Assembly (NCBI GenBank): GCA_965248735.1
Contig: OZ252146.1
Span: 3,505,605 to 3,569,604 of the forward strand
Direction: 5' to 3'
Length of the DNA: 64,000 nucleotides
Origin: Candidatus Aldehydirespirator sp.
GTDB lineage: Bacteria > Actinomycetota > Acidimicrobiia > Acidimicrobiales > Aldehydirespiratoraceae
The notes beneath the pieces were generated by a model. That model saw only the letters and a program-made list of their open reading frames with translations, did not search any database and was not told the origin of the DNA. Below, in pieces: positions 35,801 through 57,639 of this stretch. A program made the position numbers and the translations under genes. Numbering within the stretch: position 1 is the first letter of the stretch; every line of letters begins with the position of its first letter.

Positions 35801-38800
35801 TTGTCGGGACCGCCACCCTCGAGATTCCGATCCTCTTCGACCCCGAGGCCGAGGCCGCCGAGCAGTTCGACGTCCACCTCTCCGACAGCCGCTTCGCATA
35901 TGCCTTCGTAGTCACCCGTTCGCAGACCATCACGATCGCGGCGAACGCGGCAGCCTCGACCGAGGCCGCGCTGGGCTCGCTGAGCGCGTCGCCCGCGGCG
36001 CTCACTCCAGACTTCGCCCCGACGACGTACTCATACGCCGGGTCGGTGGCCAGCACCGTCACGCAGGTGACGCTGGCCGCCGCGCCCAGCGACCCCGACG
36101 CCCACCTGGTGGAGTACCTCGACGACAACAACGACGCGATCGTCGACGCCGACGGCAACGAGGGCAACGGCCTCCAGGCGGCGCTGGCGGTCGACCGCAA
36201 CGTGTTCACGGTGAGAGTCACCGCGGAGGACCGCGCCACCACGCAGGACTACACCGTCACCATCACCCGGCGCCTGTCCGATGTGGCCACCCTCAGCGCC
36301 CTCACGATCCGCGACAGCGCGGCCACGGGCACGTTCACCCAGTCGTTCTCCACCAACTGCAACACCTGCACCCACACCGCACGGGTCGACGGCGACGTGG
36401 AGCAGCTGACGATCACGCCGACGCCGACCGACCAAGACGCCTCGGTCAGCTACCACCGCGGCGATACCGAGCTGTCCGACGCCGACACCGCAACGGCGGA
36501 CACGTTCGAAGTCGACCTCGCGGAGGGCGACAACGTGATCGAGGTCAGGGTCACCGCGGGCGACGGCACAACCACCAAGAGCCATACCCTGACCGTCACC
36601 CGGGCCAGCGACAAACCCGTGGCCAGCGTCCGTGCGCCCACGGGCACGCCCGTCGAGGGCGCCACCCTGGCGTTCGCGGTCAGGCTGTCACGAGCAGCCG
36701 AAGCGGACATCACCATCGGCCTCAGCGCAACACAGACCGGCACCATGATCGTCGCCAAACCACCGAGCGTCACGATCGCGGCGGGCGACACCTCGGCCAC
36801 CGCCGAGGTGACCACCCAGGCCGATCTCATCTGGGAGGAGCACTCCGAAATCACGCTGGAGATCGACGCCAGCACCAACGACGACTACACCGTGAGCGGC
36901 TCCGCCGGCAGCGCCACAAAGACCGTCCAGGACGACGACTTCCCACTCGGCGATGCGGTGCTCGCCCTCACCGCAGACACCGTCGACGAAGGCACATCCG
37001 TCACCGCCACCGTGACCGTCACGACACGGGGCGACGAGCAGCCGCACACCGCCAGCGGGCACATGGTGATAGCGACCGAGGACGGCGTCGGCAGCGGCGG
37101 TGCCGTCTCGCCGGCCGACTTCACGGCTGTGACCGCCCGGCGCTTCAACCTGCCCATGAACAGGTTCACGCAGGTGGACGTCGACGACGATCCCGTAGCG
37201 GAGGACCCTCGCTGGCGGGCCGCCTATGAGCTGACGATCAACACCGTCAACGATGCCAACCCCGAGGTCGCGGAGACGTTCGACGTGCTGCTCCGCACCG
37301 ACTCCACCAGCGAGCACGCCGACAAGCTGTCGGTGTCGGGCTCGCCGGCCACGGCCACCATCCGCACCAGCGACTTCGCCGAGGTGAGGATCAGCAGCAC
37401 GAAGTCCGACAGCACCGAGGGCGCCAGCATCAGCTACACCGTCACACGCTCGGGACCGGCGGCGACAGCGGACATCGTCGTCAACCTGGCCGTCGAAGAA
37501 GACGGCGACATGCTGTCGGCGAGCGACGAGGGCGAGCGGACGGCGACCATCCCCGCCAACCAGAGCTCGACGACGTTCACGCTTCCGACGCAGACCGACA
37601 CCATCTACGAGGAGCACTCCACGATCACGGTCACCGTCGTCGACGGCGGCGGCTACACCCACCGCGAGGCGACCGGCCGCGCGACCGACGTCATCGACGA
37701 CGACGACTTCCCCGCAGCGCAGGCGACGCTGGCCGTCTCCGCGCCCCAGCTCGACGAGGGCGACACCCTGACGCTGACCTACACCGTCACCACCGACGCC
37801 AACGAGATCCCCCACCGCGGCACCGGCCTGCTGCGGGTGGCGGCCGCGTCGGGCACGGCCACTGCCGGGCTCGACTTCGCCGGGCTCGACGAGCAGCTGG
37901 ACTTCGAGGTGGACGACTTCGAGGAAGTCGACGTCGACGACACCGTCAGCGGTGAAGACCTGCGCCGGCAGGCCACCAAGGAATGGGAGATCCTGATCAC
38001 CGACGACAACTCCGGAGAACGGGCCGAGACGTTCACCGTCTCGCTGCGCAGCATCAGCGGCGGATCCAACCCGACCGCGGCCAACATCGACATCGCACCC
38101 TCCGACCCCGCCGAGCTCACGGTCACCATCGGCCCCAGCGACCTTCCGATCATCAGCATCACCACGGACACGGCAACCGTCGTCGAGGGCAACGCCATCG
38201 AATACACCGTGGCCCGCAGTTTCGCCACGACCGAGGCGCTGATGGTCACGGTCGTCGTCACCGAGACCAGCACCCTCGCCGCCGCCGGCGAGACCGGCGA
38301 CCGCACAGTCACCATCGGTGCCGGCCGGCCGTCGGCGACGCTCATCGTGGCCACTTCGACCGACACCGAGTGGGACGAGCACGGAACGGTAACGGCGGTG
38401 GTCGTCGCAGGCGACGGCTACACGGTCAGCGACAGCCGACGAGCGGCGACGCGCAACGTGGAGGACAACGACTTCCCCGAGGCCAGCCTCAGCCTGCAAA
38501 ACAGTCCCGCCACGGTCTGGGAAGGCTTCGACCAATCGCTCGGGTATCTGTTCCTGACCGCCGACGACCACCAGCCCCACAAGTCCACCGGCGAGTTCAT
38601 CCTCTCGATCCTCGGCGGCACCGCGGTCGTGGGACCGCGGGGCGACGGCGTCGACGTGATCGAATTCGAGCCGCTGGTCTTCAGCGTCGACGCGGGCAGC
38701 TTCACGCGAGTCGACCTCGACCTCGGCCCGGGCTTCGACTGGCGTTGGAGCGCGAGCACAATCACCTCGCGACGCCTCAATGTGGTCGATGACATCGATG

Positions 38801-41800
38801 AGGAGGCCCTCGAACAGTTCAGCCTCAACCTCGTCGCGGCGATCATGGTCGACTCGTCCAACCCCGCCGATGGGAACATCATGGTGACGAGTCCCGGCGT
38901 GATCCAGATCAGTGCCAACGACATCGATCTCAGATCCGAGGACGCCACCCTCTCGGGCCTAGATTTGAGAACCGACAACTCCATCCCGGCCCTCTCTCCC
39001 GGCTTTGTGGGCAACCAGCTCGAGTACACGGCCACGGTGGCGTTCGCGGAAACCGAGCTCACGATCACCCCGACCACCAACGACATGAACGCTTCGGTGA
39101 CCTACCGGGAAGGAACCATCGGAAGTCTCACAGCGGTCACCGGCGGCTCATTCCAGGTCAACCTGGCCGAGGGCCCCAACGTGATCGAGATACATGTCGC
39201 GGCCCATGATCCCCGCTACACGGAGACCTACACGGTTGCCGTCACCCGCCAGCCGCAGGTGAGCATCGCGGTGAAGACCACCGGAGCGGTCACCGAGGGC
39301 GGCCACGTCGAGTTCACCGTGACCCGCAGCCGGGCCAGCGACGCGGACCTCGTCGTCGACCTGACAGTGACCGATGTCGGCGATGTGATCGATCCCGATG
39401 GCGAGGGCGCCAAGCAGGTGACGATTCCGGCCGATCAGCGGTCGGCGGACTACACCGTGACCACCAGGGGCAACACGGCGTACGCAGCGCGCGCCGAGGT
39501 CACCGTCGCGGTCACCGGCGGCGATGGGTACACGCCAGCCACCACGGGCGGCAGCGCCAGCAAAGACATCCGAGACGACGACTTCCCCGGAGCGGAAATC
39601 ACCCTGACCGTGGACAAGAACACAGCCGCGGAGGGCGAGTCGGTCACCGCCACGGTGACCGTCCAGGTCAGCAACACGGACATTCTGCACGCAGGAGTGG
39701 ATGCCGGCGTGATCGTGCTGAGAGCCTCGGACACCGCATCGTCGACCCCGGGAACCGACTACTCGTTCACCGAGATGGAGTTGCCGTTCAACTACGGGGA
39801 CTTCTCCCCCGAAGACATCGACCCCGGAAACCCCCAGGACTTCCGCTCCACGGCACGCAGGACGGTCACGATCCGGATCACCGATGACAACGTTACAGAG
39901 GGCGACGAGGACCTCACGCTGCTGCTGGTCCGCCCCGACCGGCAGCAGCAGCCCGACGCCCTGCATCCCAACATCAGGCTCGGCACGGCAACCGCAACCG
40001 TCACCATCCCGGCCAACGACTCGGCCGACGCCACTCTGAGCGCTCTCGCCCTGACAGACGGCACGGACAGCATCGGGCACCTCGACCCGGCGTTCCGCAC
40101 GAGCGTGACCGAGTACCGCGCCGGAGTGGGCTTCGACACCACGAGCGTCACGCTGGCAGCGACGGCCCACCACGAGGAAGCCCGGGTCAGCATCGCCGGG
40201 CGCGCCCAGCGGGACCGAACTTCCAGCGAGACGCTGAACCTGCGCGTGGGCGAGAACGTCCTCACCGTGGTGGTCACTGCCGAGAACGACACAACGACCC
40301 AGACGTACACGGTCAGGGTCACGCGGGCCCCCCAGGTCACCTCGCTCACCCCGACCGCCTCCGACCCGGCAGCCGCCTATGCGACCACCGCGACCTACGA
40401 CATCGTCTTCCGCGGCCACTGGAACCAGCAGGTGACACCGCCGAGAGTGCCCGCGAACGCGCACTTCACCGCGCTGGTCGGCGGCGTCCACGGCGACGCC
40501 GTGAGCTTCCTCACCGCCGGAGGGCAGGCCACCGCCGGGGTGGAAGCCATGGCCGAGACCGGCGCCACCCAGGGGCTGCAGGCGGAGGTCCAGATCGCCA
40601 TGGACGCCGCCGACCCGACCGCGTACGGCACGTTCCGGCAGACTGTCGGCGGCGGCCCCACCGCCGTCGCAACCCTGAACGAGATCGTGTTCACGTCCGA
40701 GTTCCCCCGCCTGACGCTGACTTCGATGATCGCCCCCACGCCCGACTGGTTCGTGGGCGTCTCGGGCCTGCCGATGCTCGACAACCAGGGGCGCTGGCTG
40801 CGGGAGCGCACTGTCAACCTGTATCCCTGGGACGCGGGAACTGAGGACGACGTCTCCGACGACAACGGCTTCAGCTTGGGCGGGCTGGACACCGACCCGC
40901 AGGAGAACATCCGGAGCCTGCGCGGCGCCGGACCGTTCACGATCGAGCGGATCGCCTCCCTCGAGGTCACCCTGCACTCCGTCGCCACGATGCGCGAACT
41001 CGACGAGAACACCGGCGCGGGCGTCAACATCGGAGCGGCCGTGGCCTCGCCGGCGGCCCCGCCGGCGGGCAGCGGAACGATCACCTACAGCCTCGCCGGC
41101 GCCGACGCCGGCTCATTCGAGATCAACACCACAACGGGACAGCTCCGGGCCAAGTCCGGCGTGGACTACGACTTCGAGGCCAGGTCCGGGAACAGCTACG
41201 CGCTGACCGTCGTGGCCACCGACGCAGGCCCGGACCCCGAGGTGGTGACCAACATCGATGTCACCATCATTCTGCGCAACGTGGAGGAGGCGGGCGAACT
41301 GGCGGTTGCTCCCGCAGCGGCCGGCGTCAACGTGCTGCTGACGGCGTCGCTGTCTGACCCCGACGGGGGCGTGGCCGACGAGACTTGGAGATGGGAGCGC
41401 TCCGACAACGGCGTCAGCGGCTGGAGCGCGATCGCCAACGCCGACACCGCAACCTACATCCCGGTCGCCGACGACGAGGCCAAGTACCTGCGGGTGACGG
41501 TGACCTACGACGACGCGCAGGGGATGGGCCGGAGCCTCAGCCAGGTGCTGGGCCCCGTGGAGGCGCCGGCTCAGCTGAGCGACGACAGCACACTGAGCGC
41601 GCTGTCACTGAGCGGCCTCACCCTCAACCAAAGCTTCAGTTCGAGCGTCACCACCTACACCGCCGCAGCCGACTACACGACGGTGCAGACCACCGTGACC
41701 GCCACCGCCGGCGCCGCGGCCGACGGGGCGGCGGTCCAGATCCTGGACGGCAACGGCGACGCAATCCCCGACGCCGACGATCGGACCGGAGGCCACCAGG

Positions 41801-44800
41801 TTGCGCTCACCATCGACGTGAACGTGATCGTGGCGAAGGTCACCGCGGAGGACGGCTCGTCGCAGTCGTACACGGTGACAGTGACCCGCGCCCAGCCGAC
41901 GGTCACCGTCACCGCGCCCGCGGCGACGCTGACCGAGGGCAGCACGGTGCCGTTCGTGGTGAGCCGCTCGGAGGCGGCCGGGGACGGCTTGGTGGTGAAG
42001 GTGGAGGTCAGCGAGGTGGGCGAGATGGTGGCCGCCGCGAACGAGACGGTGCACACGGTCACGATCCCCGCCGACGCCCAGAGTCTGCGGCTCGAGATCG
42101 CCAGCGTCAGCGACGAGTCTTGGGAGGCTCACGCCGTGGTGACCGCGGCCGTGCAGGCCGATGCGAGCTACACGGTGGGCAGCCCGGGCTCGGCGGAGCA
42201 GACCGTTTCCGACAACGACTTCCCCGACGCCGAGGCCGTCCTCGAGGTGACCGACGAGGTCGACGAAGGCGGATCGGCCACCGCCACCGTGACGATCACG
42301 ACAGCGGGCGATCACATGCCGCACGAGGACTCGGGTCCGATCCTGGCAAGCACACAGACCGGCTCGGCGGGCGGTGGTGATTTCACGGCGCTCACCGCGA
42401 TGACCGGCACGCTGGAGTTCGCGGCGGACGATTTCGTGGCCGGGAACGGAGACAACGGCTGCCCCACCGGCACGTACTGTCTGAGCCAGAGCGTGGACAT
42501 CGCGATCACCGACGACGACCTGGCCGAGAACGCTGAGACGTTCGCGGTTGCCATGGCCAGGGTGAATCCGGCCAATCCGTCCGAGGCCCGAACCGACGGC
42601 GCGATCACACTCGACGGCACGAGCACGCCGCAGACGGTGACCATCCGACCGAGCGACCGTTCCAGCGTCAACACGCTGGGCAGCCTGAGCCTTGACGGCA
42701 CCGTGCTGACAGCCGCGTCGGACGGGAGCTACGCAGCGACCGTCAACTTCGCCGACGAGCAGATCACCGTGGTTGCCGCCGCGGGAGACAACACCGCGAC
42801 GGTGTCGTTCCTCGACCAGAACGACGCCGAGCTCGACGACGCCTCGACGATTCCGGGCCATCAGGTCGATGTGGTGATCGGAGAGACCGTGTTCAAGGTG
42901 CTGGTCACCGCCCAGGACACCACCGCAGCGACCTACACGGTGACGGCGACGCGGTCCGGGCCGGTGCTGACGCTGAGCGTGACCGCCACCGAGCTGACCG
43001 AGGGCGGCAACGTGGTGTTCACAGTGTCGCGCAACGGGGCCACGTCGGACACCACTGCTTTCGAGCTGGCGGTGACTGAGACAGGCGGGCCGATGGCAAC
43101 GGCCGGACTCAGCACCTCGCCGCTGTCCCTGTCCATCGGCAGCGGGCAGAACTCGGTCACCCACACGGTGCCCACCGAGGGCGACGACAACTGGGAGCCC
43201 CATGCCCAGATCACCGCCGCCGCCACCTCGGCCTACAGGTTCGAGAACGACACCAACTCGATCACCAAGGAAGTGCTCGACGACGACTTCCCGGCCGCGG
43301 AGGCCGTGCTCACCGTGTCGCCGACGACGATCGCGGAGCGGGACGGCGCCACGGTGACCGCGACGCTGACCGTCACAACCGACGCCAACGAGCAGCCCCA
43401 CAAGGCCAGCGGCACGATCCGGCTGGCCACCGCGCCGAACACGGCGAACACGAGCGACTACCAGGCGATCAGCTCGACTGCGGGCGCGGTGAGCTTCGAC
43501 GCCGCAGACTTCGCTGAAGTCGACATCGGCGGCGGGGTGATGCGCTGGCAGGCGAGCCGGGCGGTGCAGATCGGCATCGTCGACGACGCCATCAAGGAGC
43601 CGCAGGAGCAGTTCAGTGTCACGATGGCGGTCACGACGGGATCGAGGCCGACCGACGCGCACATCCGGCTGCACGCTGATGCCGAGTTCGTGGTCAGCAT
43701 CGATCCGAGCGACCGTTCCAGCGACGCATCGCTGCAGAGTCTCGGGCTCAGTGCGGGTCGCCTGGACACCGCGTTCCAGTCGGGAACCATCGCCCACACC
43801 GTGACGGTGCCGTTCGGGAGCCCCCGAATCACCGTCAGCCCGCAGGCCACCGACTCGAACGCCGTGTCGGTGGAGGTGCTCGACGGCACTGACCAGACCG
43901 CCGAGGTGGACGTCGACCCGAACACGCCGGGCACGCAGGTCGACCTTGAGCTCAACACGCCGAGGGCGATCGCCATCACGGTGACTGCGGAGGACACCAC
44001 CACGATGCGCACCTACACCCTGACGATCACGCGCCAGTTGCCCGAACTGACGATCAGCGTCACCGACGACGAACTGGCCGAAGGCGAAAGCGTAGTCGCG
44101 ACGATCAGCCGTGACGCCGCCACTGATGAGACGACCGCGTTCACCCTGAGCGTCAGCGAGGACGGCACGATGGTCGATGACGTGCTCGAGACGGACGGCG
44201 TGACGTACCTGATTCAGGCCGAGCAGACCGCGTTCGAGCTGGAGATCCCCACCCAGGCCGACGACGTCTGGGACGCCGCCTCGACGGTCAGCGTGGAACT
44301 CGAGGAGAACGACGCCGCCTACAGAACGTCGGGCCCGCTGACGGTGACCGCCGCGGTGAGCGACAACGACTTCCCCGAGGCGGCCGCGGTGCTGGCCGTG
44401 TCGAGCGACACCGTCGACGAGAGCCAGACGGTCACGGCCACGGTGACCATCACGACGGCGCGTGCCGAGCAGCCCAACGAGGACGGGGGCAAGCTGCTGG
44501 TGAGCACGTCCGACGGGCCCGACCCCGACGGTGCCGGCAACGGAGCGCCGGCCACCGCAGGCATCGACTACCGAGCGCTCACCGCGACGACGGGAGAGTT
44601 GACCTTCCGCCAGCAAGAGTTCGTCGAAGGGGACGAGACGAACGACTGCCCGGTCTCTAGGTGGTGCGCGAGCAAGAACATCGAGATCGCCACCCTCGAC
44701 GACAACGAGAGCGAGCAAGTCGAGCGGTTCACCCTCAGCCTGGCTGCGGTCACGACCGATCCGGACCCGACCGATTCCAACATCGCGCTCGACCCCGACC

Positions 44801-47799
44801 GCAGCAGCCAGCACGTCGACATCGCGCCCAACGACCTGACCGACAAGGCCGGCCTCCAGGCCATCGAGCTGACCGGCGGCGAGCTCAGCCCGACCTTCAT
44901 CAGCACGACCACCGAGTACACGGCCAGCATCGGCTTCGACCATCCACAGATCACGATCGCGCCCGAGACGCTGAACCCCGGTGAGACGTTCGACTTCTAC
45001 GGCCAGGAGGGACTCACCCTCCTGGACGACGCCGACATCACCGCGCCCGGCTTCCAGGTCGACCTGCCCGTGGGCACGGCCGTGGTCGTCAGGATCGTGG
45101 CCACCGCCCGGGACCGGCTGACTATCGAGACCTACACGGTCACGTTCACGCGCCAGGTGCCAGAGGTTGCCATTGGCGTGCCCCAGACCTCCGGGCTCGA
45201 GGAGGGCGCCGAGCTGACCTTCACCGTGACGCTGAACGGGCCGGTGGAAGCCCCCGCCGGGCTCGACGTGACGCTGACGATCGACGAGACGGGCGGGATG
45301 CTGCCTCCGCCCGGCGAATCCCCCCGAACGGTCACGGTCAACGTGCCCCAGGGCCGGACCACGGCCACACACACGCTGGCGACCGTGGACGACGATGCGT
45401 GGGAGGAGCACTCCACGATCAGCGTGTCCGTCTCGCCGACACCGGGCTCGTACACGGTTCCGTCCGGCTCGGAGGCGGCGTCGCACATCGTCATGGACGA
45501 CGACTTCCCCGAGGCGACGGCCGTTCTGGAGGTCTCGCCCCGACCGGTGGACGAAGGCGGCACCGTCACCGCGGCGGTCGTGATGACGACGGCGCGTGAC
45601 GAGCAGCCCCGCGAGGACGCAGGCACAATCCTCCTCAGCACCACCGATGGCACCGCCACCGCCGGCGACGACTACACCGCCATCTCGCCTGCGTCGGGGG
45701 CGCTCACGTTCGCCCAGGCCGACTTCAAGCGCGTCGACCTCGACACCGACTCCGGCGACAATGTCACGGACTATCGATGGCGCGCGGCCAAGGCGGCGAC
45801 CATCTCTGTGGCCAACGACACCGCCGACGAGCCCGACGAGACCTTCAGCGTGGCCATGGCCGCGGACGCGACGGGCTCGTCGCCGACGGACGGTGCGATC
45901 ACGCTGGACTCGAGCACCTCCTCGCTCGACGTGACGATCAACGCGAGTGATGTGCACCGTGTCGCCATCGTCACGGTGGGCAGCCCTAGCCAGACTGGCG
46001 CGACCGCGACGGTCTCAATCACCAACCCGAGCCGGGCGAGCGTCACGGTTTACCTGCGGTACCGGCCGGATGGCGGGGCGTACGGGCCGGCGGTGGAGAT
46101 GCAGACCTCCCGGGCCAGCGTGCAGTTCGAGCTCAGCGGGCTGAGCGAGGCGACGCTGTACGAAGTGCAGGCCTCCCTGGACAATGGGTTCGCGTCGCCC
46201 AAGACCGCGCGGTTCTCCACGCTCGGGAGTGCGCCCGCGGTGTCCGAGCTCGAGGTGGAGAACGCGGGCCAGACCGGGGCGTCGGTGACTGCGTTCATCG
46301 CCAACGTCGGCACCACCACTGCCGGGACATCGGCTCGCAGCCTCGGCGATCGAACAGTCATGGCGCTCACGGCCAAGACGCAGCCTGTCGGCGCACCAAC
46401 GGTCGGGGCACGAACAGTCGGCGCAGCAACAGTCGGGGCACGAACAATCAGCGCACCAACAGTCCAGACGCAGCCGCCCGAGCACACGGTCAGCCTGCGC
46501 TACCGCTACGAGGGCGAACCATGGTCACAGGAGCAGTCGATGACGACCACGGCGTCCTCGGTGACCTTCCATCTCACCGGCTTGCGGGCCGGCGCTACGC
46601 CAGAGGTGGAGGCGACGCTGAGCGACAGCTTCGATGATGTGGGCGTGCAGTCGTTGCAGTTCGACACGGAGCCCCCCGCCGTGACCGCGGTCGCGGTCGA
46701 CGCCGCCGACATCACCGCACACACGGCCAAGCTCACGGTGACCGTCAGCGACCGCAACGGCGACCGGGTACATCTGCGCTACCGCGCCGACAGCCATTGG
46801 ACGCAGATGAGCAAGGTCTTCGACGAGGGCGGCAGCGACGACACATTCGAACTGCCCGGCCTCGTCGCGGGCACCGCGTACAACGTGGAGGCTTCGTTTG
46901 ACAGCACCTTCGGCGACAGGACTGCAACCAGGTGCATGAGCTTCGTCACCGACACCGCACCGGACTCCGACGATGGCCGCCAGACCGGCGCGAACTGCCG
47001 GGGATCGGCGGTCACCCCTGGCAACGTCGGCCGAGGAGGGCCAGCGCCTGGCGGCGGCGGAGGGCTACCGCCCGGTGGCGAGCCGGAGCCCGAGACGGCG
47101 CAGCCGGATGTGGTCTTCGGCGACGTGCCCCAAGACGCCTGGTACCACGACGCCGTGCAGCACATAGCCCGGCTCGGCATCACCACAGGCTGTCTCACCG
47201 AGCCGCTGCGCTACTGCCCCGCCCAACCGGTCAGCCGAGCCCAATTGGCCGCGTTCCTGTCACGGCTTCTCGGCGGACCCCCTGCCGACAACGCGCCGGA
47301 TGTGGTCTTCGGCGACGTGCCCCAAGACGCCTGGTACCACGACGCCGTGCAGCACATAGCCCGGCTCGGCATCACCACAGGCTGTCTCACCGAGCCGCTG
47401 CGCTACTGCCCCGCCCAACCGGTCAGCCGAGCCCAGATGGCCGCGTTCCTGTCACGGCTTCTCGGCGGACCCCCTGCCGACAACGCGCCGGATGTGGTCT
47501 TCAGCGACGTGCCCCAAGACGCCTGGTACCACGACGCCGTGCAGCACATAGCCCGGCTCGGCATCACCACAGGCTGTCTCACCGAGCCGCTGCGCTACTG
47601 CCCCGCCCAACCGGTCAGCCGAGCCCAAATGGCCGCGTTCCTGAGCCGAGCCATCACCCACTCCGAAGCCCGCGACGACAACGCCGCAGCCACTTGGGCC
47701 GGCACCTTCACACCCCAAGCCGTGCGATCGGGGGCCGCCCTCCAAGTTAGCCAGTGGCCACCCGGCGGGCCAGGGACCGGAACGCCATCACGAAGGTGA
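29896..47799 (+). CDS. giant (5,967 aa) secreted, SLH-anchored mosaic cell-surface protein
   Basis: A single open frame of 17.9 kb with coherent domain grammar throughout. Sec-type signal ...RRQVSVAALLTAALLAVAAPTPAHA/D. The likely start is GTG 29935 or 29941 rather than TTG 29896. See the sub-features. Confidence 0.93.
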   Translation: MSLTSCARNPPGGVGVRERPRRQVSVAALLTAALLAVAAPTPAHADSHPVVTVAAGTVPNTFSATDDDPHDTTWHYAWITGSDPCGPSTTFPSAQTYAEGNDVSYGTSNLGQRLCLRAVDSSSNTGYATSDIVDHLAPPRVPFRIGEIMATPGDESVTLTWEAPYDGGSPITQYVVLSNPPGGLCITSVPGCTMTGLANGTAYDFEVSTFNAIGYEDSFFPLQVTPTADPPATDPPATDPPVTDPPATDPPATDPPVTDPPATDPPATDPPVTDPPATDPPVTDPPATDPPVTDPPATDPPVTDPPATDPPVTDPPATDPPVTDPPATDPPVTDPPATDPPVTDPPATDPPVTDPPATDPPVTDPPATDPPVTDPPATDPPVTDPPVTDPPATDPPAKDPPVTAPGGSGGSGSSGGDGERAARTTETTTLSGITVDGTAIPDFDAERDSYTVGLANGVATATVAATPTASSATVTCSVDADGNAAGCQVALTAGAGVDLTLTVTDSSATMDYTLTLNRGLTGTFAWKASDDIYGLAAVLGENTSRTRGIWSDGTTLWVADNDRRNSKLVAFNLETKARQSLNDINTGASDLLHVRRPVGVAGTDDGSVLVARRHNGLTEQARIQGFRRNDASEWQPDIEESYVLPSDIILAPSIRGIWTHGERLYIADDSSDNAVLAFTWNSDRSNMVHDSPGDITLASENDSPAGIWSDGETIWVADALTERIFAHKTVDGQRDTAKEFTQSHLTVKDTPIKPWGIWSDGETMWVVDRGTAIVYSFNLPVSNNPGLSQLEVQHGEDPVELSVAETTHTVVLPGSPTSTTLTIAPRNRFATVDVLPADANLSLGGYQVDLTGGPVEVTITVTAADATTRQVYTVTVGPAPLEITSVIATPNTRLLQVSWHEPSNSATLGVTAYDLRYARTDADNLENDDQWTVIDDVWTTGGGDLSYILRGLTNGQAYYVQVRAVNALREGPWLPHERISESATGTPAASTSLDASLSAITVNGAAIPNVAMDRGNYTVGVASSVATATVIGTPRDVGATVSCIDDSDPVADGCQASLTENGSTEVQLTVTIGTTVGNYTITINRGRGGTFHWKASQDIYGLDASLTTSFPRGIWSDGTTLWVVNNGTPKGLFAFDLETGARQPQADIVQTLAETQASLRGLAGADEMIFVADSKPTNALRYTKVFAYTQGSSGDWQHNPLLDLTGSSVGLLDTNTIQGIWTDGEVLWGSVGGAIRAVWLTGPSRNQRLPARDFGIASLSQFRGLWSDGETMWAAESSEIRAYDMLTRAHVASKSFDSDHLRVPGSTVDPWGIWSDGETMWAVDSVKGNAYSFEMPVSNNATLQHLRIDGVDAAEFDRELSSQTLGLANDASTITLDARPRHFQAEYLITSTDDDSMEGHQIDVSGAAKTFTATVTAQDAVTTKTYSIEIGRLPALIVGADATPGPNSLSVGWSAPSDPGSSAVTSYDLRYAATQTERLHEDSRWTEVPGVWQTGGGTRSHQISGLDPRDEYYVQVRANNGVGSGPWMPHSRIGESGRGTPQASGSDVSSLSSLSVSPGALSPGFDAGTTGYSVELGFSVERITVAAATTDSNADYEILGGSEQTTLVDADPNTPGFEVDVPAGAYTITVSVTSQHLLESTDYTISITRAAAATDANLSVLSLNDADLDELLDFDTATTSYTFAVPNDSARITVTATARSARATIAFLDGASGTVELPDADRRANGFQIDLIGGQQKTFRVVVTAESGTKRTYTLRVTRSQPRVGVEVVPPLDGDANEIPYVEGDSLNFTVSLGSALSSDVDVAYTLTGDIVAGATSGTARIVAGQTSVDVTVPTSGNTLYSDHHTVTLTLTAPGDGAYAFVTNKQSVAVEVRDDDFPDISNAVADMEVDGTSVVEGGTVTVTVRIELDSLTDFPHASSTPVRLYTADRPANTPGDKATAGDDYQALDVQVSIPPENFEIGNGFFGPTIVGTATLEIPILFDPEAEAAEQFDVHLSDSRFAYAFVVTRSQTITIAANAAASTEAALGSLSASPAALTPDFAPTTYSYAGSVASTVTQVTLAAAPSDPDAHLVEYLDDNNDAIVDADGNEGNGLQAALAVDRNVFTVRVTAEDRATTQDYTVTITRRLSDVATLSALTIRDSAATGTFTQSFSTNCNTCTHTARVDGDVEQLTITPTPTDQDASVSYHRGDTELSDADTATADTFEVDLAEGDNVIEVRVTAGDGTTTKSHTLTVTRASDKPVASVRAPTGTPVEGATLAFAVRLSRAAEADITIGLSATQTGTMIVAKPPSVTIAAGDTSATAEVTTQADLIWEEHSEITLEIDASTNDDYTVSGSAGSATKTVQDDDFPLGDAVLALTADTVDEGTSVTATVTVTTRGDEQPHTASGHMVIATEDGVGSGGAVSPADFTAVTARRFNLPMNRFTQVDVDDDPVAEDPRWRAAYELTINTVNDANPEVAETFDVLLRTDSTSEHADKLSVSGSPATATIRTSDFAEVRISSTKSDSTEGASISYTVTRSGPAATADIVVNLAVEEDGDMLSASDEGERTATIPANQSSTTFTLPTQTDTIYEEHSTITVTVVDGGGYTHREATGRATDVIDDDDFPAAQATLAVSAPQLDEGDTLTLTYTVTTDANEIPHRGTGLLRVAAASGTATAGLDFAGLDEQLDFEVDDFEEVDVDDTVSGEDLRRQATKEWEILITDDNSGERAETFTVSLRSISGGSNPTAANIDIAPSDPAELTVTIGPSDLPIISITTDTATVVEGNAIEYTVARSFATTEALMVTVVVTETSTLAAAGETGDRTVTIGAGRPSATLIVATSTDTEWDEHGTVTAVVVAGDGYTVSDSRRAATRNVEDNDFPEASLSLQNSPATVWEGFDQSLGYLFLTADDHQPHKSTGEFILSILGGTAVVGPRGDGVDVIEFEPLVFSVDAGSFTRVDLDLGPGFDWRWSASTITSRRLNVVDDIDEEALEQFSLNLVAAIMVDSSNPADGNIMVTSPGVIQISANDIDLRSEDATLSGLDLRTDNSIPALSPGFVGNQLEYTATVAFAETELTITPTTNDMNASVTYREGTIGSLTAVTGGSFQVNLAEGPNVIEIHVAAHDPRYTETYTVAVTRQPQVSIAVKTTGAVTEGGHVEFTVTRSRASDADLVVDLTVTDVGDVIDPDGEGAKQVTIPADQRSADYTVTTRGNTAYAARAEVTVAVTGGDGYTPATTGGSASKDIRDDDFPGAEITLTVDKNTAAEGESVTATVTVQVSNTDILHAGVDAGVIVLRASDTASSTPGTDYSFTEMELPFNYGDFSPEDIDPGNPQDFRSTARRTVTIRITDDNVTEGDEDLTLLLVRPDRQQQPDALHPNIRLGTATATVTIPANDSADATLSALALTDGTDSIGHLDPAFRTSVTEYRAGVGFDTTSVTLAATAHHEEARVSIAGRAQRDRTSSETLNLRVGENVLTVVVTAENDTTTQTYTVRVTRAPQVTSLTPTASDPAAAYATTATYDIVFRGHWNQQVTPPRVPANAHFTALVGGVHGDAVSFLTAGGQATAGVEAMAETGATQGLQAEVQIAMDAADPTAYGTFRQTVGGGPTAVATLNEIVFTSEFPRLTLTSMIAPTPDWFVGVSGLPMLDNQGRWLRERTVNLYPWDAGTEDDVSDDNGFSLGGLDTDPQENIRSLRGAGPFTIERIASLEVTLHSVATMRELDENTGAGVNIGAAVASPAAPPAGSGTITYSLAGADAGSFEINTTTGQLRAKSGVDYDFEARSGNSYALTVVATDAGPDPEVVTNIDVTIILRNVEEAGELAVAPAAAGVNVLLTASLSDPDGGVADETWRWERSDNGVSGWSAIANADTATYIPVADDEAKYLRVTVTYDDAQGMGRSLSQVLGPVEAPAQLSDDSTLSALSLSGLTLNQSFSSSVTTYTAAADYTTVQTTVTATAGAAADGAAVQILDGNGDAIPDADDRTGGHQVALTIDVNVIVAKVTAEDGSSQSYTVTVTRAQPTVTVTAPAATLTEGSTVPFVVSRSEAAGDGLVVKVEVSEVGEMVAAANETVHTVTIPADAQSLRLEIASVSDESWEAHAVVTAAVQADASYTVGSPGSAEQTVSDNDFPDAEAVLEVTDEVDEGGSATATVTITTAGDHMPHEDSGPILASTQTGSAGGGDFTALTAMTGTLEFAADDFVAGNGDNGCPTGTYCLSQSVDIAITDDDLAENAETFAVAMARVNPANPSEARTDGAITLDGTSTPQTVTIRPSDRSSVNTLGSLSLDGTVLTAASDGSYAATVNFADEQITVVAAAGDNTATVSFLDQNDAELDDASTIPGHQVDVVIGETVFKVLVTAQDTTAATYTVTATRSGPVLTLSVTATELTEGGNVVFTVSRNGATSDTTAFELAVTETGGPMATAGLSTSPLSLSIGSGQNSVTHTVPTEGDDNWEPHAQITAAATSAYRFENDTNSITKEVLDDDFPAAEAVLTVSPTTIAERDGATVTATLTVTTDANEQPHKASGTIRLATAPNTANTSDYQAISSTAGAVSFDAADFAEVDIGGGVMRWQASRAVQIGIVDDAIKEPQEQFSVTMAVTTGSRPTDAHIRLHADAEFVVSIDPSDRSSDASLQSLGLSAGRLDTAFQSGTIAHTVTVPFGSPRITVSPQATDSNAVSVEVLDGTDQTAEVDVDPNTPGTQVDLELNTPRAIAITVTAEDTTTMRTYTLTITRQLPELTISVTDDELAEGESVVATISRDAATDETTAFTLSVSEDGTMVDDVLETDGVTYLIQAEQTAFELEIPTQADDVWDAASTVSVELEENDAAYRTSGPLTVTAAVSDNDFPEAAAVLAVSSDTVDESQTVTATVTITTARAEQPNEDGGKLLVSTSDGPDPDGAGNGAPATAGIDYRALTATTGELTFRQQEFVEGDETNDCPVSRWCASKNIEIATLDDNESEQVERFTLSLAAVTTDPDPTDSNIALDPDRSSQHVDIAPNDLTDKAGLQAIELTGGELSPTFISTTTEYTASIGFDHPQITIAPETLNPGETFDFYGQEGLTLLDDADITAPGFQVDLPVGTAVVVRIVATARDRLTIETYTVTFTRQVPEVAIGVPQTSGLEEGAELTFTVTLNGPVEAPAGLDVTLTIDETGGMLPPPGESPRTVTVNVPQGRTTATHTLATVDDDAWEEHSTISVSVSPTPGSYTVPSGSEAASHIVMDDDFPEATAVLEVSPRPVDEGGTVTAAVVMTTARDEQPREDAGTILLSTTDGTATAGDDYTAISPASGALTFAQADFKRVDLDTDSGDNVTDYRWRAAKAATISVANDTADEPDETFSVAMAADATGSSPTDGAITLDSSTSSLDVTINASDVHRVAIVTVGSPSQTGATATVSITNPSRASVTVYLRYRPDGGAYGPAVEMQTSRASVQFELSGLSEATLYEVQASLDNGFASPKTARFSTLGSAPAVSELEVENAGQTGASVTAFIANVGTTTAGTSARSLGDRTVMALTAKTQPVGAPTVGARTVGAATVGARTISAPTVQTQPPEHTVSLRYRYEGEPWSQEQSMTTTASSVTFHLTGLRAGATPEVEATLSDSFDDVGVQSLQFDTEPPAVTAVAVDAADITAHTAKLTVTVSDRNGDRVHLRYRADSHWTQMSKVFDEGGSDDTFELPGLVAGTAYNVEASFDSTFGDRTATRCMSFVTDTAPDSDDGRQTGANCRGSAVTPGNVGRGGPAPGGGGGLPPGGEPEPETAQPDVVFGDVPQDAWYHDAVQHIARLGITTGCLTEPLRYCPAQPVSRAQLAAFLSRLLGGPPADNAPDVVFGDVPQDAWYHDAVQHIARLGITTGCLTEPLRYCPAQPVSRAQMAAFLSRLLGGPPADNAPDVVFSDVPQDAWYHDAVQHIARLGITTGCLTEPLRYCPAQPVSRAQMAAFLSRAITHSEARDDNAAATWAGTFTPQAVRSGAALQVSQWPPGGPGTGTPSRR
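30576..31106 (+). repeat. 15-bp coding tandem repeat, about 35 copies of TDPP(A/V)
   Basis: acagacccaccagcc / accgacccaccggcc / acagacccaccggtg units head to tail, giving a Pro/Thr-rich stalk after the first FN3 domain (30330-30570). Confidence 0.95.
31183..34530 (+). other. duplicated super-module: cadherin-like beta-sandwich, 5 Trp-rich blades, cadherin-like beta-sandwich, FN3 (two copies: 31183-32860 and 32866-34530)
   Basis: Blades carry GIWSDG(T/E)T(L/I/M)WV(A/V)D-type motifs (8 clear and 2 degenerate). FN3 copies contain TAYDLRYA...GL.....YYVQVRA.N. The cadherin-like units follow L..L.V.G..L.P.F......YT..V. Confidence 0.7.
34537..40330 (+). other. array part 1: cadherin-like beta-sandwich domains alternating with five Calx-beta-like domain pairs
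   Basis: Recurrent pattern V.EG....FTV.RS.A...DL.V.L.V...G...(T)IPA.Q.S....V.T..D...E.H...T..V, then D(D/N)DFP, then VDEG..VTATVTVTT...E.PH...G...D(Y/F)......F...DF..VD...R(W)...E.F.V.L. The D(D/N)DFP boundaries lie near 35515, 36935, 37695, 38465 and 39575. Confidence 0.7.
40340..41290 (+). other. Spondin_N-like domain (40340-40986) followed by a cadherin repeat (40987-41290)
   Basis: YDIVFRGHWN...HFTALVGGVH...MIAPTPDWFVGVSGL...NLYPWDAGTEDD matches the F-spondin N-terminal domain signature from memory. ITYSLAGADAGSFEINTTTGQLRAKSGVDYDFE...YALTVVATDAG matches the cadherin-repeat pattern. Confidence 0.65.
41575..45950 (+). other. array part 2: four more cadherin-like beta-sandwich + Calx-beta-like pair modules
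   Basis: Same grammar as 34537-40330. The D(D/N)DFP boundaries lie near 42215, 43280, 44365 and 45495. Confidence 0.7.
45955..46950 (+). other. three FN3-like domains, the second interrupted by a 5x pentapeptide (VGA.T) 15-bp repeat at 46384-46460
   Basis: Repeated pattern T.A.VTV......V.LRYR....W...........F.L.GL...T.Y.V.AS.D..F. Confidence 0.5.
47104..47679 (+). repeat. three near-identical 192-bp repeats, each encoding an SLH (S-layer homology) domain
   Basis: Copies start at 47104, 47296 and 47488. Each encodes FGDVPQDAWYHDAVQHIARLGITTGCLTEPLRYCPAQPVSRAQ(L/M)AAFLSR, which fits the SLH consensus (F.DV...W....I..L...GI..G.....P...V.R.Q.A.FL.R). Only a handful of nucleotide differences separate the copies. 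Confidence 0.85.
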
Positions 47800-52432: not shown

Positions 52433-53380
52433 TCAGACCAGGCCGAGCCGGCCCCGGGCGTCGGCAACATCGAGGGCGAGCTGCTCAGAGAGGTGCTCCA
52501 GCCCCTCGAACTTGCGCTCGCTCCGCAGGAAGTCGACGAACTCCACTCGCACCTCGCACCCGTACAGGTCGCCGTCGAAGTCGATGACGTGGACCTCCAG
52601 GAGCGACTGCTGAGCGTGCTCGTAGAAGGTGGGACGGCGGCCGATGTTGATGGCGCAGCCCCGCCGGCTGCCGTCCGGCAGCGTGCACCATCCCGCGTAG
52701 ACGGCGTCGGCCGGCCAGGCCATGGCTTTGGGAACGGGCACGTTGGCGGTAGGGAACCCGACCGTCACCCCTCGCCGGTCCCCGGGAACGACCTTGCCGC
52801 GCACCTCGTAGTAGCGCCCCAGCATGGCCGCGGCCCGAGCCACGTCGCCGCCGGCGAGGGCCCTGCGCACGGTCGTCGACGACACCGGCTCGCGGGCGTC
52901 GCTGCGGTGGCGTATGAGCTCTAGGGGAACCACCTCGAAGCCCCACTCGCGGCCTAGGCGCTCCAGCTCGGCCACGTTGCCGGTGCGGCCCTTGCCGAAG
53001 TGGAAGTCCTCCCCCACCACCACGGCCCGGGCGTGGAGGGCATCGAGGAACACCTGCTCGACGAACTCCTCGGGCCGGGTATCGGCCCGAGCCTCGTCGA
53101 ACTCGATGACGTAGCAGTAGTCGAGGCCGGTGGCCTCCAGCAGTTCGAGCTTCTGCTCAAGCGTCGTGAGCAGCTTCGGCGCGTTCTCCGGGCGAACCAC
53201 ATAGGCCGGATGGGTGTCGAAGGTGACGACCGCCGACGCGACGTCAAGGCGCCCGGCGGTCTCACGGACCCGGGTCAGCACCTCCCGATGGCCAAGGTGC
53301 ACCCCGTCGAACACGCCTATGGTCGCCGCGGCTGACACCGTGGGGGGCAGTTGATCGCGCCGATCATGCAGCAACTCCAC
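52433..53380 (-). CDS. ribF: bifunctional riboflavin kinase / FMN adenylyltransferase
   Basis: GVFDGVHLGHREVL (FAD synthetase) and GFPTANV (riboflavin kinase) motifs. Conserved position next to truB. Confidence 0.92.
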   Translation of the reverse strand: MELLHDRRDQLPPTVSAAATIGVFDGVHLGHREVLTRVRETAGRLDVASAVVTFDTHPAYVVRPENAPKLLTTLEQKLELLEATGLDYCYVIEFDEARADTRPEEFVEQVFLDALHARAVVVGEDFHFGKGRTGNVAELERLGREWGFEVVPLELIRHRSDAREPVSSTTVRRALAGGDVARAAAMLGRYYEVRGKVVPGDRRGVTVGFPTANVPVPKAMAWPADAVYAGWCTLPDGSRRGCAINIGRRPTFYEHAQQSLLEVHVIDFDGDLYGCEVRVEFVDFLRSERKFEGLEHLSEQLALDVADARGRLGLV

Positions 53381-53453: not shown

Positions 53454-54320
53454 CTACCTCACACCCGCCACGACCACCGCAGGCTTCGCGCCCTCTCGAA
53501 ACGGCTCGTAGACCGCGAGCAGTCCGCCCTCGGAGTCGTGCACCGCCCACGGGCCGGCGCCCGCCGCGCCCAGGCGGTCGAGGTCCAGAACCCGGCCGTG
53601 GGCCACCTCCGCGGCCACTGCGGGACCCACCCGCACACCCGACAAGTGCTCGACGGACCTCGACATCGGCAGGACCTCGGGCGACTCCACCGGACGGGCC
53701 TGAGCCAGCCCGAAGCCTCCCACCGCGGTGCGGCGGAGGCATCTCAAGTGGGCGCCCCCTCCGAGCGCCCGGCCCAGATCCGCGGCCAGCACCCGCACGT
53801 AGGTGCCCGACGAGCACTCCACGGCGGCGCGGAGCACGCCCTCGCGGCCTGGCGCTGAGGCCACCTCGAAGCGGTAGACCGTGACGGGCCGCGGCTTGCG
53901 CTCCACCTCCACACCCTCCCTGGCCAGCTCGTGGAGCCTCCGCCCTCCCACCTTCACCGCCGAGACCATGGGCGGCACCTGAAGGATGTCGCCGGTCAAC
54001 GAGGCGGCCGCTTGGCGCGCTTGAGTCTCGCTCACGCCGTCCATCCGGTGGCGTGCCGTCACCCGTCCCGCCGAATCGAGGGTGTCGGTCTCGACTCCGA
54101 GCACGATCTCCGCCTCGTAGCTCTTGGGCAGCTCGGTGAGGAACCGCAGCAGCCGGGTGGCCCGGCCGATTCCGAGCACGAGAACTCCGGTGGCGTCGGG
54201 ATCGAGGGTGCCGCTGTGCCCCACCTTGCGGGTGCCCAGCACGCCCCTCGCCTTGGCCACCACGTCATGGCTGGTCCACCCCGCCGGCTTGTCTATTACT
54301 GCGATCCCGTCAAGCAGCAT
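53454..54320 (-). CDS. truB: tRNA pseudouridine(55) synthase
   Basis: HSGTLDPDATGVLVLG catalytic motif. Synteny with rbfA and ribF. Confidence 0.92.
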   Translation of the reverse strand: MLLDGIAVIDKPAGWTSHDVVAKARGVLGTRKVGHSGTLDPDATGVLVLGIGRATRLLRFLTELPKSYEAEIVLGVETDTLDSAGRVTARHRMDGVSETQARQAAASLTGDILQVPPMVSAVKVGGRRLHELAREGVEVERKPRPVTVYRFEVASAPGREGVLRAAVECSSGTYVRVLAADLGRALGGGAHLRCLRRTAVGGFGLAQARPVESPEVLPMSRSVEHLSGVRVGPAVAAEVAHGRVLDLDRLGAAGAGPWAVHDSEGGLLAVYEPFREGAKPAVVVAGVR

Positions 54321-54443
54321 CAGCTGGCGGGATCCGCAGCGCGGGCCATACCGTCGAGCACTGTCAGCTCTCCGGATCGGCGGCGCCGGCCATACCGTCG
54401 CTCTCCGGATCCGCAGCGCGGGCCATACCGTCGAGCACTGTCA
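54320..54443 (-). repeat. duplicated rbfA/truB junction (77 + 41 nt) with two relay mini-ORFs
   Basis: GTG 54438..TGA 54364 encodes VLDGMARAADPESDGMAGAADPES. GTG 54361..TGA 54320 encodes VLDGMARAADPAS. The last TGA shares its A with the truB ATG. Heads resemble the truB start MLLDGI and tails resemble the rbfA end LLDGMAGAADPES. Confidence 0.85.
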
Positions 54444-54842
54444 GCTCTCCGGATCGGCGGCGCCGGCCATACCGTCGAGCAGCCTCTCTATGCGTTCGGC
54501 CGAGCGCAGCGCGGTGTCCGGGCGGAACACCAGCTCGGGTGTGCGCCGCAGCCGGGTCTGGTCCCCGACGGTGCGCCGCAGTTCGCCAGCGTGTTCCTCG
54601 AAGGCCTCGGCTATGTCGATGTCGCCGTCGTCGTCGTCGGTATCGCCCAGCGACGTGAACCACACCACTGCTCGGTGCAGGTCACGGTCCACATCCACGG
54701 ATGTCACCGACACCATGGCCAGCCGGTCATCGTCCAGTTGCTCCATGGACTCGGCGACTATGCGCCTGATGAGCTCGCCTACCCGGGCGGTGCGGTGACC
54801 GGCCCGGTGGTCGGGCTGGGAGCGTCTCGTGCGTCGTGTCAT
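54441..54842 (-). CDS. rbfA: ribosome-binding factor A
   Basis: RVGELIRRIVAESMEQL...VSVTSVDVDRDLHRAVVWF is typical of RbfA. Synteny between infB and truB. Confidence 0.88.
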   Translation of the reverse strand: MTRRTRRSQPDHRAGHRTARVGELIRRIVAESMEQLDDDRLAMVSVTSVDVDRDLHRAVVWFTSLGDTDDDDGDIDIAEAFEEHAGELRRTVGDQTRLRRTPELVFRPDTALRSAERIERLLDGMAGAADPES

Positions 54843-54870: not shown

Positions 54871-57639
54871 TCACCCCTCGAGGGTTCGGGCCACCTCGCG
54901 CTCGGTGTAGGTCTCGATGACGTCGCCCGCTTTGAGGTCCTGGAAGTTGCTCAGGCCTATGCCGCACTCGAAACCGGACTGAACCTCGCGGACATCGTCG
55001 GAGAAGCGCTTGAGCGACGTGATGGTCCCCTTCCAGATGATCGTCTGATCGCGCAGGAACCGCACGCTGGATCCCCTGGTGATGGTGCCGTTCTGCACGT
55101 AGCAGCCCGCCACCGCACCCACGCGGGGGATGCGGAAGACCTGACGCACCTCGGCATCGCCCGTCACGATCTCCTCGATGTCGGGGGCCAGCATCCCGAC
55201 CATCGCCGAGGACACGTCCTCGAGGAGCTTGTAGATGATCTCGTAGGTGCGGATCTCCACGTTCTCGGCGTCGGCGGCCTCGCGGGCCTTGCGGTCGGGT
55301 CGGACATTGAACCCGATGATGGTCGCGTTCGAGGCCGAGGCCAGCTGGATGTCGCTCTCGTTGATGCCGCCGACGCCGCGGTGCACGATGGCGATGCGGA
55401 CGTCCCCGGTCGCTAGCTTGCGCAGGCTCTCGGTGACGGCTTCGAGCGAGCCGTTCACATCGGCCTTCACGATGGCGTTCAGAGTGGCGGTCTCGCCCCG
55501 CTGGATCCGAGTGAAGAGATCCTCGAGCTTGGCCCCGCCCGACAGGGTGTGCGCCTCGCGGCCCAGGCTCGACAGCCGCTGCCAGTGCTCACGGGTGTCG
55601 GCCACCCGGCCCGCGATCTTCTCGTTGGGAGCCACCGCGAAGGCGTCACCCGCGATCGCGACCTCCGACAGGCCCAGGACCTGGACCGGTGCGGACGGCG
55701 GAGCCGCGCCGACATTCTGGCCCAGCTCGTCGAGCAGGGCCCGGACCCGGCCCCAGGCCGCTCCCGCGACCACCGGGTCGCCCACCCGCAGCGTGCCCCG
55801 CTGCACCAGCACAGTGGCCACCGGACCCAGCCCGATGTCGAGGTTCGACTCGAGCACGACACCTCCCGCTCGGCCCTCCGGCAAAGCTCGGAACTCCTCG
55901 ACCTCAGCCACCAGCAGGATCTGATCCAGCAACTCCTCGATGCCCTCGCCGGTCAGGGCCGAGATCTCGCAGTAGATCGTGTCCCCGCCCCAGACTTCGG
56001 GAACCAGTCCCTGCTCGGCCACCCCAGCCACCGTCCTCTGCGTGTCGGCGTTCGGTCGGTCGATCTTGTTCACGGCCACAACGATGGGAACGTCGGCAGC
56101 CTTAGCGTGGTTGATGGCTTCTACCGTCTGGGGCATCACGCCGTCGTCGGCCGCCACCACCAGAACCACGATGTCGGTGGCGCTCGCGCCCCGGGCCCGC
56201 ATCGCAGTGAACGCCTCGTGGCCCGGAGTGTCTATGAACGTGAGTGTCCGGCCGTTGCGCTCGACCTGGTAGGCGCCGATGTGCTGAGTGATCCCGCCCG
56301 CCTCGCCGTCAACCACATTGGTGTCGCGGATGCGGTCCAGCAGCAGGGTCTTGCCATGGTCCACATGGCCCATGACCGTCACTACCGGAGGCCGAAGCGG
56401 CGCCTCGTCGGTGTCGTCGGCGTCGCCATCGATGCCGAGGAGCTTGCGGAGCTCGACCTCCTGCTCCTCGCCCGGATCGACAAGCCTGATCTCGGCATCG
56501 ATCTCCGCCGCGAAGAGCTCCATCATCTCGTCACTCAGCGACTGGGTGGCGGTGACCATCTCGCCGTGCTGCATGAGGAAGCGGACCACATCGGCGGCGG
56601 TGCGGTTCAGTTTGGGGCCGAAGTCCTGGGCCGCTGAGGCCCGTTCGACCACCACCACGCCCGGCGGTACCGCCGCATGACGGGGCGTGTAGGTCGGAAT
56701 GTCCATCGGCTGGAGCTCTTCACGCACCCGGCGCCGACGGCTCTTGCGTCGGGGCGGGCGCCGCTGCGCGCCGCCGGGACCGCCTCTGCCAGGTGGGCGG
56801 CCCCCGGGTCCCGGCGCTCCGGGGCGCGGCCCGCCGAGAGGGCGAGGGGCCGCCGCGGGCGCGCCGCGGCGAGCGCCCGCGCCGCGATCGGGCCCGCCCG
56901 AGGGCCGGAACCCCGTGGGACGGGCACCCGGACCTGCGGACCGGCGCTCGGCAGCCGAGGCGCCGGGCCGCGTCGGGCCGCCCGGAGGGGGAGGCGGGTG
57001 CAGGCGGCGCGGCGGAGGAGGGGGCGGGATGGGTTTGCCCGAACGCGAGACGGGCGGGATCCCCGACCTGAGGGAGCGGGCCGGAGGGGCGCTGGCGGGC
57101 GCCCTCTGACCAGCCTGCCTCTGCAGTGGCGGCTCTTCGGCCGGGGGCTGGGGTTCGTCTCGGACGACACGCTTGGCCGGGGCGACGCTACCGCTCGAGG
57201 AGATCGTCACCCTGGGTTTGGGCGCGCTCTGTTCCCTCCTGGCCGCGGCCGGAGGGGCCTTCGCCACCCGTGGCCCATCGGAACCGGCCAGCGGCGCGGC
57301 CCGCTTTTGCTGCTCAACGGGCTTGTCGGGCCGCAAGACGGCTGGGCTCTCGGCTGGCGGGGGCGGAGGCTTCCTGGCCGCGGCGGGCTGGGAACGCACA
57401 GGCTCGTCATGCGGCTCCGGGGCCACCGGCGCCGCGAGTTCAACCACCGGCGGCGGGGGCGGCGGCTTCAGCAAACCGTCGCGCTGTGCCCTTCGCCGGA
57501 CGCGGTCGGCTTGGGCTTCGACAATGCTTGAGGAGTGGGACTTGACCCCGATGCTGAGCGCGAAGCAGAGTTCGAGCGTCTCCTGATTGGTCAACCCGAG
57601 TTCTTTGGCGAGCTCATGGACGCGGATCTTGCCTGGCAA
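54871..57639 (-). CDS. infB: translation initiation factor IF-2
   Basis: GHVDHGKT and DTPGHEAF GTPase motifs, the Pro/Ala/Gly/Arg-rich N-terminal region usual for high-GC Gram-positives, and a TTG start after GAAGGGGG. Confidence 0.95.

Follow-up and report, generated by a model that had tools for sequence, protein, structure and literature searches.

The end of rbfA and the start of truB in this Candidatus Aldehydirespirator genome are separated by repeated copies of their own junction, which raises the question of where the copies came from, which of the two genes supplied them, and how translation would proceed across them. The locus lies in a window (the whole 64,000-nucleotide stretch of DNA that was analysed) whose minus strand carries the canonical gene order nusA, ylxR-like ORF, infB, rbfA, truB, ribF. 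The nusA and ylxR-like labels come from reading the ORF translations, and those of rbfA, truB and ribF from Pfam. The rbfA gene (54441-54842, minus strand) encodes a 133-aa 30S ribosome-binding factor A that matches the Pfam RBFA model over residues 17-122 (E=4e-24; PF02033 profile, 85.2 bits against a curated cut-off of 34.7) and aligns with PDB RbfA chains over residues 16-124. The truB gene (53454-54320, minus strand) encodes a 288-aa tRNA pseudouridine-55 synthase (TruB_N, E=1.6e-51; PF01509 profile, 175 bits against a cut-off of 27.3). The infB gene (54871-57639, minus strand) is in canonical order, and truB is followed by ribF (52433-53380, minus strand; Pfam FAD_syn and Flavokinase matches).

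Tandem repeats at the rbfA-truB junction

The 3′ end of rbfA translates as ...ERLLDGMAGAADPES followed by a stop, TruB begins with MLLDGIAV, and the gap from the rbfA stop to the truB ATG measures 120 nt (77 + 43, rather than the 77 + 41 given in the first-pass annotation). Positions 54318-54482 of the minus strand are taken up by a 44-nt unit repeated head to tail about four times. TRF reports a period of 77 with 1.9 copies, 100% identity and a sub-period of 44/33 (54330-54477), and a second repeat-finding method reproduces this result, bearing out the original observation that the junction is duplicated. The 148 nt between 54330 and 54477 (minus strand) are perfectly periodic at 77 nt (TRF, 100% matches), so the array cannot be due to chance.

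Unit 1 (44 nt, CTGCTCGACGGTATGGCCGGCGCCGCCGATCCGGAGAGCTGACA; 54439-54482, minus strand) consists of RbfA codons L121-S133, TGA and a 2-nt spacer; the final 13 codons of rbfA and its stop (TGA at 54443-54441) thus lie within the array, and a GGAG (54450-54447) is found 8 nt 5′ of the next GTG. Units 2 and 3 are fused into a 77-nt segment (54362-54438, minus strand) equal to twice 44 nt minus the 11 nt TGACAGTGCTC. The 11-nt deletion eliminates one stop and one start but keeps the frame (44 - 11 = 33), leaving a single 24-codon mini-ORF (A), GTG-VLDGMARAADPESDGMAGAADPES plus stop, that runs from the GTG at 54438 to the TGA at 54366-54364 on the minus strand. Unit 4 (44 nt; 54318-54361, minus strand) contains mini-ORF B, GTG-VLDGMARAADPAS plus stop, from the GTG at 54361 to the TGA at 54322-54320; this TGA and the truB ATG (54320-54318) share one base, the A of TGATG. 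Both mini-ORF translations, the shared base and the TruB N-terminus are exactly as first annotated.

A partial fifth copy, CTGCTTGACGGGATCGCA, is recognizable within truB codons 2-7 (54300-54317, minus strand), where 13 of 18 bases match the start of the unit in register (P ~1.6e-4 for a fixed position); in strain L001 the figure is 16 of 18 (P ~1.7e-7). This partial copy is the right-hand limit of the array, the last copy extending into truB codons 2-6. In the window strain, the latest duplication is the 77-nt one. A single simple duplication was rejected as the source of the 44+33+44+44 layout, the periodicity holding over 148 nt only and not 154. The join that forms the 33-nt segment (GGAGAG/CGACGG) is without clear microhomology. 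No further site matching the 16-mer core of the unit with up to two mismatches was found in the 64-kb window.

Unit number varies among close relatives

Junction sequences were obtained for 26 relatives at species level, MAGs bearing the label Acidimicrobiales, Acidimicrobiaceae or Candidatus Aldehydirespirator, and for closer ones found by exact-protein look-ups. Such look-ups gave no record for the window TruB, nor for the SDR protein encoded 3′ of a second array (14132-14457, described below). Counting rbfA's own tail as unit 1, there is one unit in L035, L036 and L157, two in L032, L033, L034 and L158, three in L002, L003, L030 and L159, 3.75 in the window and four in L001. An identical RbfA protein is encoded in three other metagenome assemblies (L002, L003 and L001), whose flanks are 97-99.7% identical and whose arrays are built of clean 44-nt units; the sister lineages with one, two or three units (L035, L036, L157; L032-L034, L158; L030, L159) are about 93-96% identical in their flanks. 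In a neighbour-joining tree of the flanks (~2.7 kb), all carriers, being 93% or more identical to the window, fall into one clade. Copy number shifts on most branches of this tree and differs between sister tips, as in L032 (two units) and L030 (three). In L159, all three units resemble the lone L035 unit in their variants rather than those of the window, a sign of either concerted evolution or independent expansion. L035, with its one unit, could itself be the product of array collapse and not an ancestor.

One duplication was found outside the array clade. L008 carries, at the same junction (L008 2850-2960), a separate 32-nt duplication whose mini-ORF, VDGAADPESR plus stop, is bounded by TAGTG and TAATG overlaps, both of them kept. 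Taken with the copy-number shifts, these features make the rbfA-truB junction a recurrent hot spot, with the array behaving as a variable-number tandem repeat (VNTR).

The same survey bears on whether the copies were made, or mis-counted, by an assembler, which we judge very unlikely. Arrays of two to four units are present in at least nine independent assemblies; the carriers include contigs of 3.4-4.6 Mb with names stating ~94-235x coverage, and two of them (L034 and L159) have names of the form ..._c, read as circular. The points on the side of an artefact are that the exact 44+33+44+44 layout is known from the window assembly alone and that a short-read scaffold, L031, has a run of N inside its rbfA-truB array (~1940-2040). 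As judged from these assemblies, the array is genuine, with the window's precise layout to be taken as assembled.

RbfA tail as the probable source of the unit

The first-pass annotation had proposed that RbfA gained its present C-terminal tail when a duplicated copy of the truB head was captured. Relatives devoid of the repeat speak to the direction of the copying. L006, L010, L011, L012, L013, L004 and L160-162 (RbfA 81-89% identical) have an RbfA tail of the type ERLLDG(T/M)xGAADPES(W/R) that runs directly into truB, the stop of one gene overlapping the start of the next. RbfA of L006, L010, L011 and L012 (81-87% identical) ends in ...ERLLDGTDGAADPESW, and the TAG that follows overlaps a GTG (TAGTG). 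In these repeat-free relatives TruB starts with VPDG(V/I)AV, not with MLLDG (VPDG(V/I)AVIDKP in L006 and L010-L012). The repeat-free junction is spelled TAGTG or TGATG in L006, L010-L012, L009, L014 and L016; the overlap between rbfA stop and truB start amounts to 1 nt in L006, L009-L012, L014 and L016, and also in the one-unit L035. The comparison shows that a junction without repeat, in which stop and start overlap, is the ancestral state, and that the 44-nt unit comprises 13 codons of the RbfA tail, its stop and the start codon of truB, with no foreign sequence.

The unexpanded junction also offers a candidate for the origin of the period. In L006, the distance from CTCGACGG in the rbfA tail (...L-D-G) to CCCGACGG in the truB head (P-D-G) is exactly 44 nt, as counted on the sequence; the spacing between TGCTCGACGG and TGCTTGACGG in the one-unit L035 is likewise 44 nt. 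The period of the array thus equals the spacing of short direct repeats in the unexpanded junction, as in a VNTR produced by slippage or unequal recombination. Comparable pairs of 9-mers lying 30-60 nt apart occur in 20% of random 80-nt windows from the same genome, which is 69% G+C and has 2.7 CGACGG per kb. A 9-mer pair being at chance level, the seed microhomology requires no special explanation, and the chance resemblance of CTCGACGG and CCCGACGG probably seeded the duplication.

Capture of truB sequence by rbfA is, on these data, highly improbable. What can be said for it is the in-register likeness between the truB head and the start of the unit (13/18). The junction is duplicated, as first described, but the direction of copying is reversed, with the RbfA tail as the source. 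The tail is already present in relatives that lack the repeat and whose TruB starts with VPDG, contrary to the expectation that TruB of relatives would begin with an MLLDG-like sequence. Nor is it lineage-specific, LLDG(M/T)xGAADPES(W/R) being kept in dozens of homologues, including species without repeat. In the outgroups, RbfA tail and TruB head show no similarity beyond D-G. Finally, PDB alignments reach residue 124 and the Pfam match L122, which makes LL(DG) the last part of the conserved RbfA fold rather than something captured. Structure alignment places IERLLDG of the window protein against MSNLVTS of E. coli and against KIERMIQD of 8bxa, and distant RbfA homologues keep ERIE(R/K)LL and diverge thereafter. 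A deeper truB origin of the tail was ruled out on the same grounds, homology with solved RbfA structures spanning LLDG. We therefore conclude that the RbfA tail is ancestral and that the copies between the genes are duplicates of that tail together with the truB start codon.

The likeness of the truB head to the unit may have a different cause. TruB starts with (M)VLDG or MLLDG in the array-bearing clade, as opposed to VPDG in the repeat-free relatives. Over 14 nt the L001 truB head, GTGCTCGACGGTAT, matches the unit completely, whereas sister strains differ at 2 positions; the sister strain L002 has GTGCTTGACGGGAT. This comparison shows array-internal exchange extending into truB codons 2-5. 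The step from VPDG to VLDG may reflect conversion from rbfA or, alternatively, a point mutation older than the duplication.

Other variation was noted at the end of rbfA. In L007 (2880-3075), a 145-nt spacer of unrelated sequence precedes truB. Some relatives (L007; P0026, P0022, P0006) have RbfA tails lengthened through read-through or short duplications, for instance ...PENWEAERAGGDTW and ...PESGPESW. Distant RbfA homologues (P0077, P0069; L024 2880-2945) have C-terminal tandem peptide repeats of their own, with GGVNSADGV repeated, SSGLSAERS repeated, or DLADP present three times. The RbfA tail seems generally repeat-prone in Acidimicrobiales.

A putative chain of coupled mini-ORFs

Nine arrays have two or more units, and in each of them all mini-ORF starts adjoin the preceding stop. 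The boundaries are either a 2-nt spacer (TGAcaGTG, TGAcgGTG) or a 1-nt overlap (TGATG), and the last start is that of truB. Mini-ORFs are 13-14 codons long across the arrays, the 24-codon one of the window excepted. The junctions are spelled TGATGGTG, TGATGCTG, TGACAGTG or TGACGGTG, each of which keeps at least one of ATG and GTG. The P-E-S codons of window-type units contain a GGAG, 8 nt before GTG, that is plausibly a ribosome-binding site. Internal units have this GGAG; the truB ATG of the window, like that of L003, has none upstream, and in the window it would rely on the TGATG overlap. The junction spellings, the frame-keeping 11-nt deletion and the L008 overlaps are consistent with, without proving, a pressure to maintain an intact chain; the intactness could also reflect the mere youth of the copies.

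Features that might act at the RNA level were sought in the array. RNA folding of the array was not better than that of shuffled sequences (z = -1.6), with single units at z ~0; an Rfam search of the array returned no family, only sub-threshold miRNA noise; and no terminator or promoter was found on its coding strand. A structured RNA, attenuator or terminator was rejected on the array's z value and on the Rfam, terminator and promoter results.

Termination-reinitiation coupling at gene pairs with overlapping stop and start (TGATG, ATGA) has been reviewed (PMC12548453). The rbfA-truB junction resembles such pairs in its ancestral 1-nt overlap (TAGTG/TGATG) and in having all unit boundaries at -1 or +2 nt. 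It differs from them in that two or three mini-ORFs would lie between the coupled genes, making up a serial relay that is here predicted from sequence. By analogy, we infer that ribosomes could travel along the mini-ORFs from rbfA to truB and that copy number may attenuate truB output.

Relationship to MIRUs and to ordinary minisatellites

In the parts of PMC12548453 and PMC3184786 that deal with them (after Supply et al. 1997), MIRUs are described as 40-100 bp tandem units between co-transcribed genes, with strain-variable number and with small ORFs that overlap or abut the neighbours' stop and start; they form a dispersed family of some 40-50 loci and are thought to insert at start codons. 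The parallels with the rbfA-truB array are close. Its units, of 44 nt (77 nt for the higher-order repeat), are intergenic, within an operon-type gene order and in coding-strand orientation; its mini-ORFs overlap the adjoining stop and start (TGATG) or abut them with a 2-nt spacer (TGAcaGTG); and its unit number is polymorphic (1, 2, 3, 3.75 or 4) among strains with flanks 93-99.7% identical. Unlike MIRUs, the array shows no interspersed family within the 64 kb: the unit is a local copy of the junction, single in relatives, with no other in this stretch. The host, moreover, is an Acidimicrobiales MAG and not Mycobacterium. The array works in a MIRU-like fashion but is not a member of the MIRU family.

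It is correspondingly hard to credit that a mobile, MIRU-like interspersed element inserted itself between rbfA and truB. Such an event would explain the architecture, with its 44-77-nt units inside an operon and its mini-ORFs overlapping the neighbours' stop and start; but the single-copy junction of relatives accounts for each base of the unit, the 64-kb window holds no further copy, and the units of the other arrays in the window are unrelated. A metagenome scan with the 17-mer TGCTCGACGGYATGGCC returned at least 120 stretches; none among the matches listed has the 44-nt unit (allowing up to 10 mismatches), the 17-mer being too short and the matches single chance ones.

A closer fit is provided by ordinary VNTRs or minisatellites arising from slipped-strand mispairing. 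As in these, the copies are head to tail, the period equals the microhomology spacing, copies are rapidly gained and lost, and units are homogenised within an array. Unlike an ordinary VNTR, the rbfA-truB array spans the stop/start overlap of housekeeping genes, making each copy a translation cassette, and its 44-nt period (2 mod 3) suits the frame shift between rbfA and truB. The mechanism is that of an ordinary minisatellite generated by slippage or unequal recombination, made special by its position.

Other tandem arrays in the window

At least two further gene junctions in the window bear similar arrays. On the minus strand at 14132-14457, 8.3 copies of a 35-nt unit (99% identity) extend from the stop of a TPP-enzyme gene (14455-16338) to the ATG of the SDR gene (14142). 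The unit comprises the SDR start codon together with leader and first codons, and encodes MTEPAGVGTAAA followed by a stop, the TGA overlapping the next ATG (ATGA). A close relative, L163, has two units at this TPP-enzyme/SDR junction, and the more distant L164 a different, 74-nt array in two copies. The second case is a 72-nt unit in 6.8 copies (99% identity; 11285-11772, minus strand), which runs from the TGA of a fatty-acid desaturase/Rieske gene (11759-11757) toward a GFO_IDH_MocA gene (GTG at 11164). The sequence CGCGGTGAG is found at the desaturase/Rieske stop, in each 72-nt unit and at the start of the downstream oxidoreductase.

A third array, 6.6 copies of a 36-nt unit, ESSPAGESAMSA (100% identity; 2919-3155, plus strand), includes an ATG just 5′ of an HTH_34 winged-helix domain (ORF 2637-3491) and seems to have arisen by in-frame duplication of the region in which a small regulator starts. 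Repeats occur also within a stop-free frame of 5974 codons (29875-47799, plus strand), in the form of a 30-nt array of 17.5 copies (30580-31105), a 15/30-nt array (46387-46464) and a 192-nt array of 2.8 copies (47103-47643); this frame probably encodes a giant repetitive surface protein. One more array, of a 39-nt unit in 3.6 copies (92% matches; 601-741), overlaps ORFs without Pfam match. Tandem duplication of start and junction regions seems common in this genome. The occurrence of several such arrays favours a mutational origin, on which the requirement that the downstream gene stay translated would act as a filter.

Proposed origin and function

We consider it very probable that the array is a VNTR born in place at the rbfA-truB stop/start junction, with copies derived from the RbfA tail and forming a mini-ORF chain. 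In the starting arrangement, as seen in relatives, the rbfA stop overlaps the truB start by one base, with CTCGACGG and CCCGACGG 44 nt apart. Slippage during replication, or unequal recombination, between these two short chance repeats would then have duplicated the intervening 44 nt. Once two copies were present, homology-driven gain, loss and conversion produced the observed range of one to four copies, to which the window strain adds a frame-keeping 11-nt deletion and a recent 77-nt duplication. Each unit being a complete stop/start cassette, the resulting array reads as a chain of mini-ORFs of 13-24 codons. Ribosomes leaving rbfA would probably reach truB by serial termination and re-initiation, in which case coupling would survive the 120-nt spacer and chain-breaking variants would be selected against. 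In itself the array is probably nearly neutral; its copy number may exert a mild tuning of the output of truB, and possibly of ribF.

A stronger version of the latter idea, compatible with in-place birth, is an adaptive contingency locus, in which selection on copy number adjusts how strongly truB/ribF are translated in relation to rbfA. The rapid copy-number turnover, the always intact mini-ORF chain, the maintenance of frame by the 11-nt deletion, the loss of a start codon only where a second start remains, and the presence of similar arrays at other junctions of the same genome all agree with this proposal. The independent mutational events are, however, too few for a test, the reading being drawn from sequence, and young copies would show intact chains anyway; we regard selection of this kind as unlikely.

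A broader generalization can be offered tentatively, and with less than even confidence: in sponge-associated Acidimicrobiales (Candidatus Aldehydirespirator MAGs), MIRU-like coupled mini-ORF chains might be repeatedly born in place by stop/start duplication and act as relays whose copy number tunes how adjacent genes are expressed relative to each other. The rbfA-truB, TPP-enzyme/SDR and desaturase/oxidoreductase junctions, all within the same 64 kb, would be examples of such birth at stop/start junctions. Taken alone, the rbfA-truB locus is of modest interest, largely a mutational curiosity. If the generalization is true, repeated in-place birth would provide a concrete model for the origin of MIRU-type elements. 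The natural one- to four-copy intermediates illustrate, stepwise, how a tightly coupled core-gene junction can turn into a minisatellite with both genes unbroken, and relatives directly reveal the local origin of an architecture otherwise known from mycobacterial MIRUs. The locus and the nearby arrays are candidate strain-typing markers for uncultured symbionts. Should the relay work, a change in copy number would be an easy and reversible way of shifting the rbfA:truB expression ratio.
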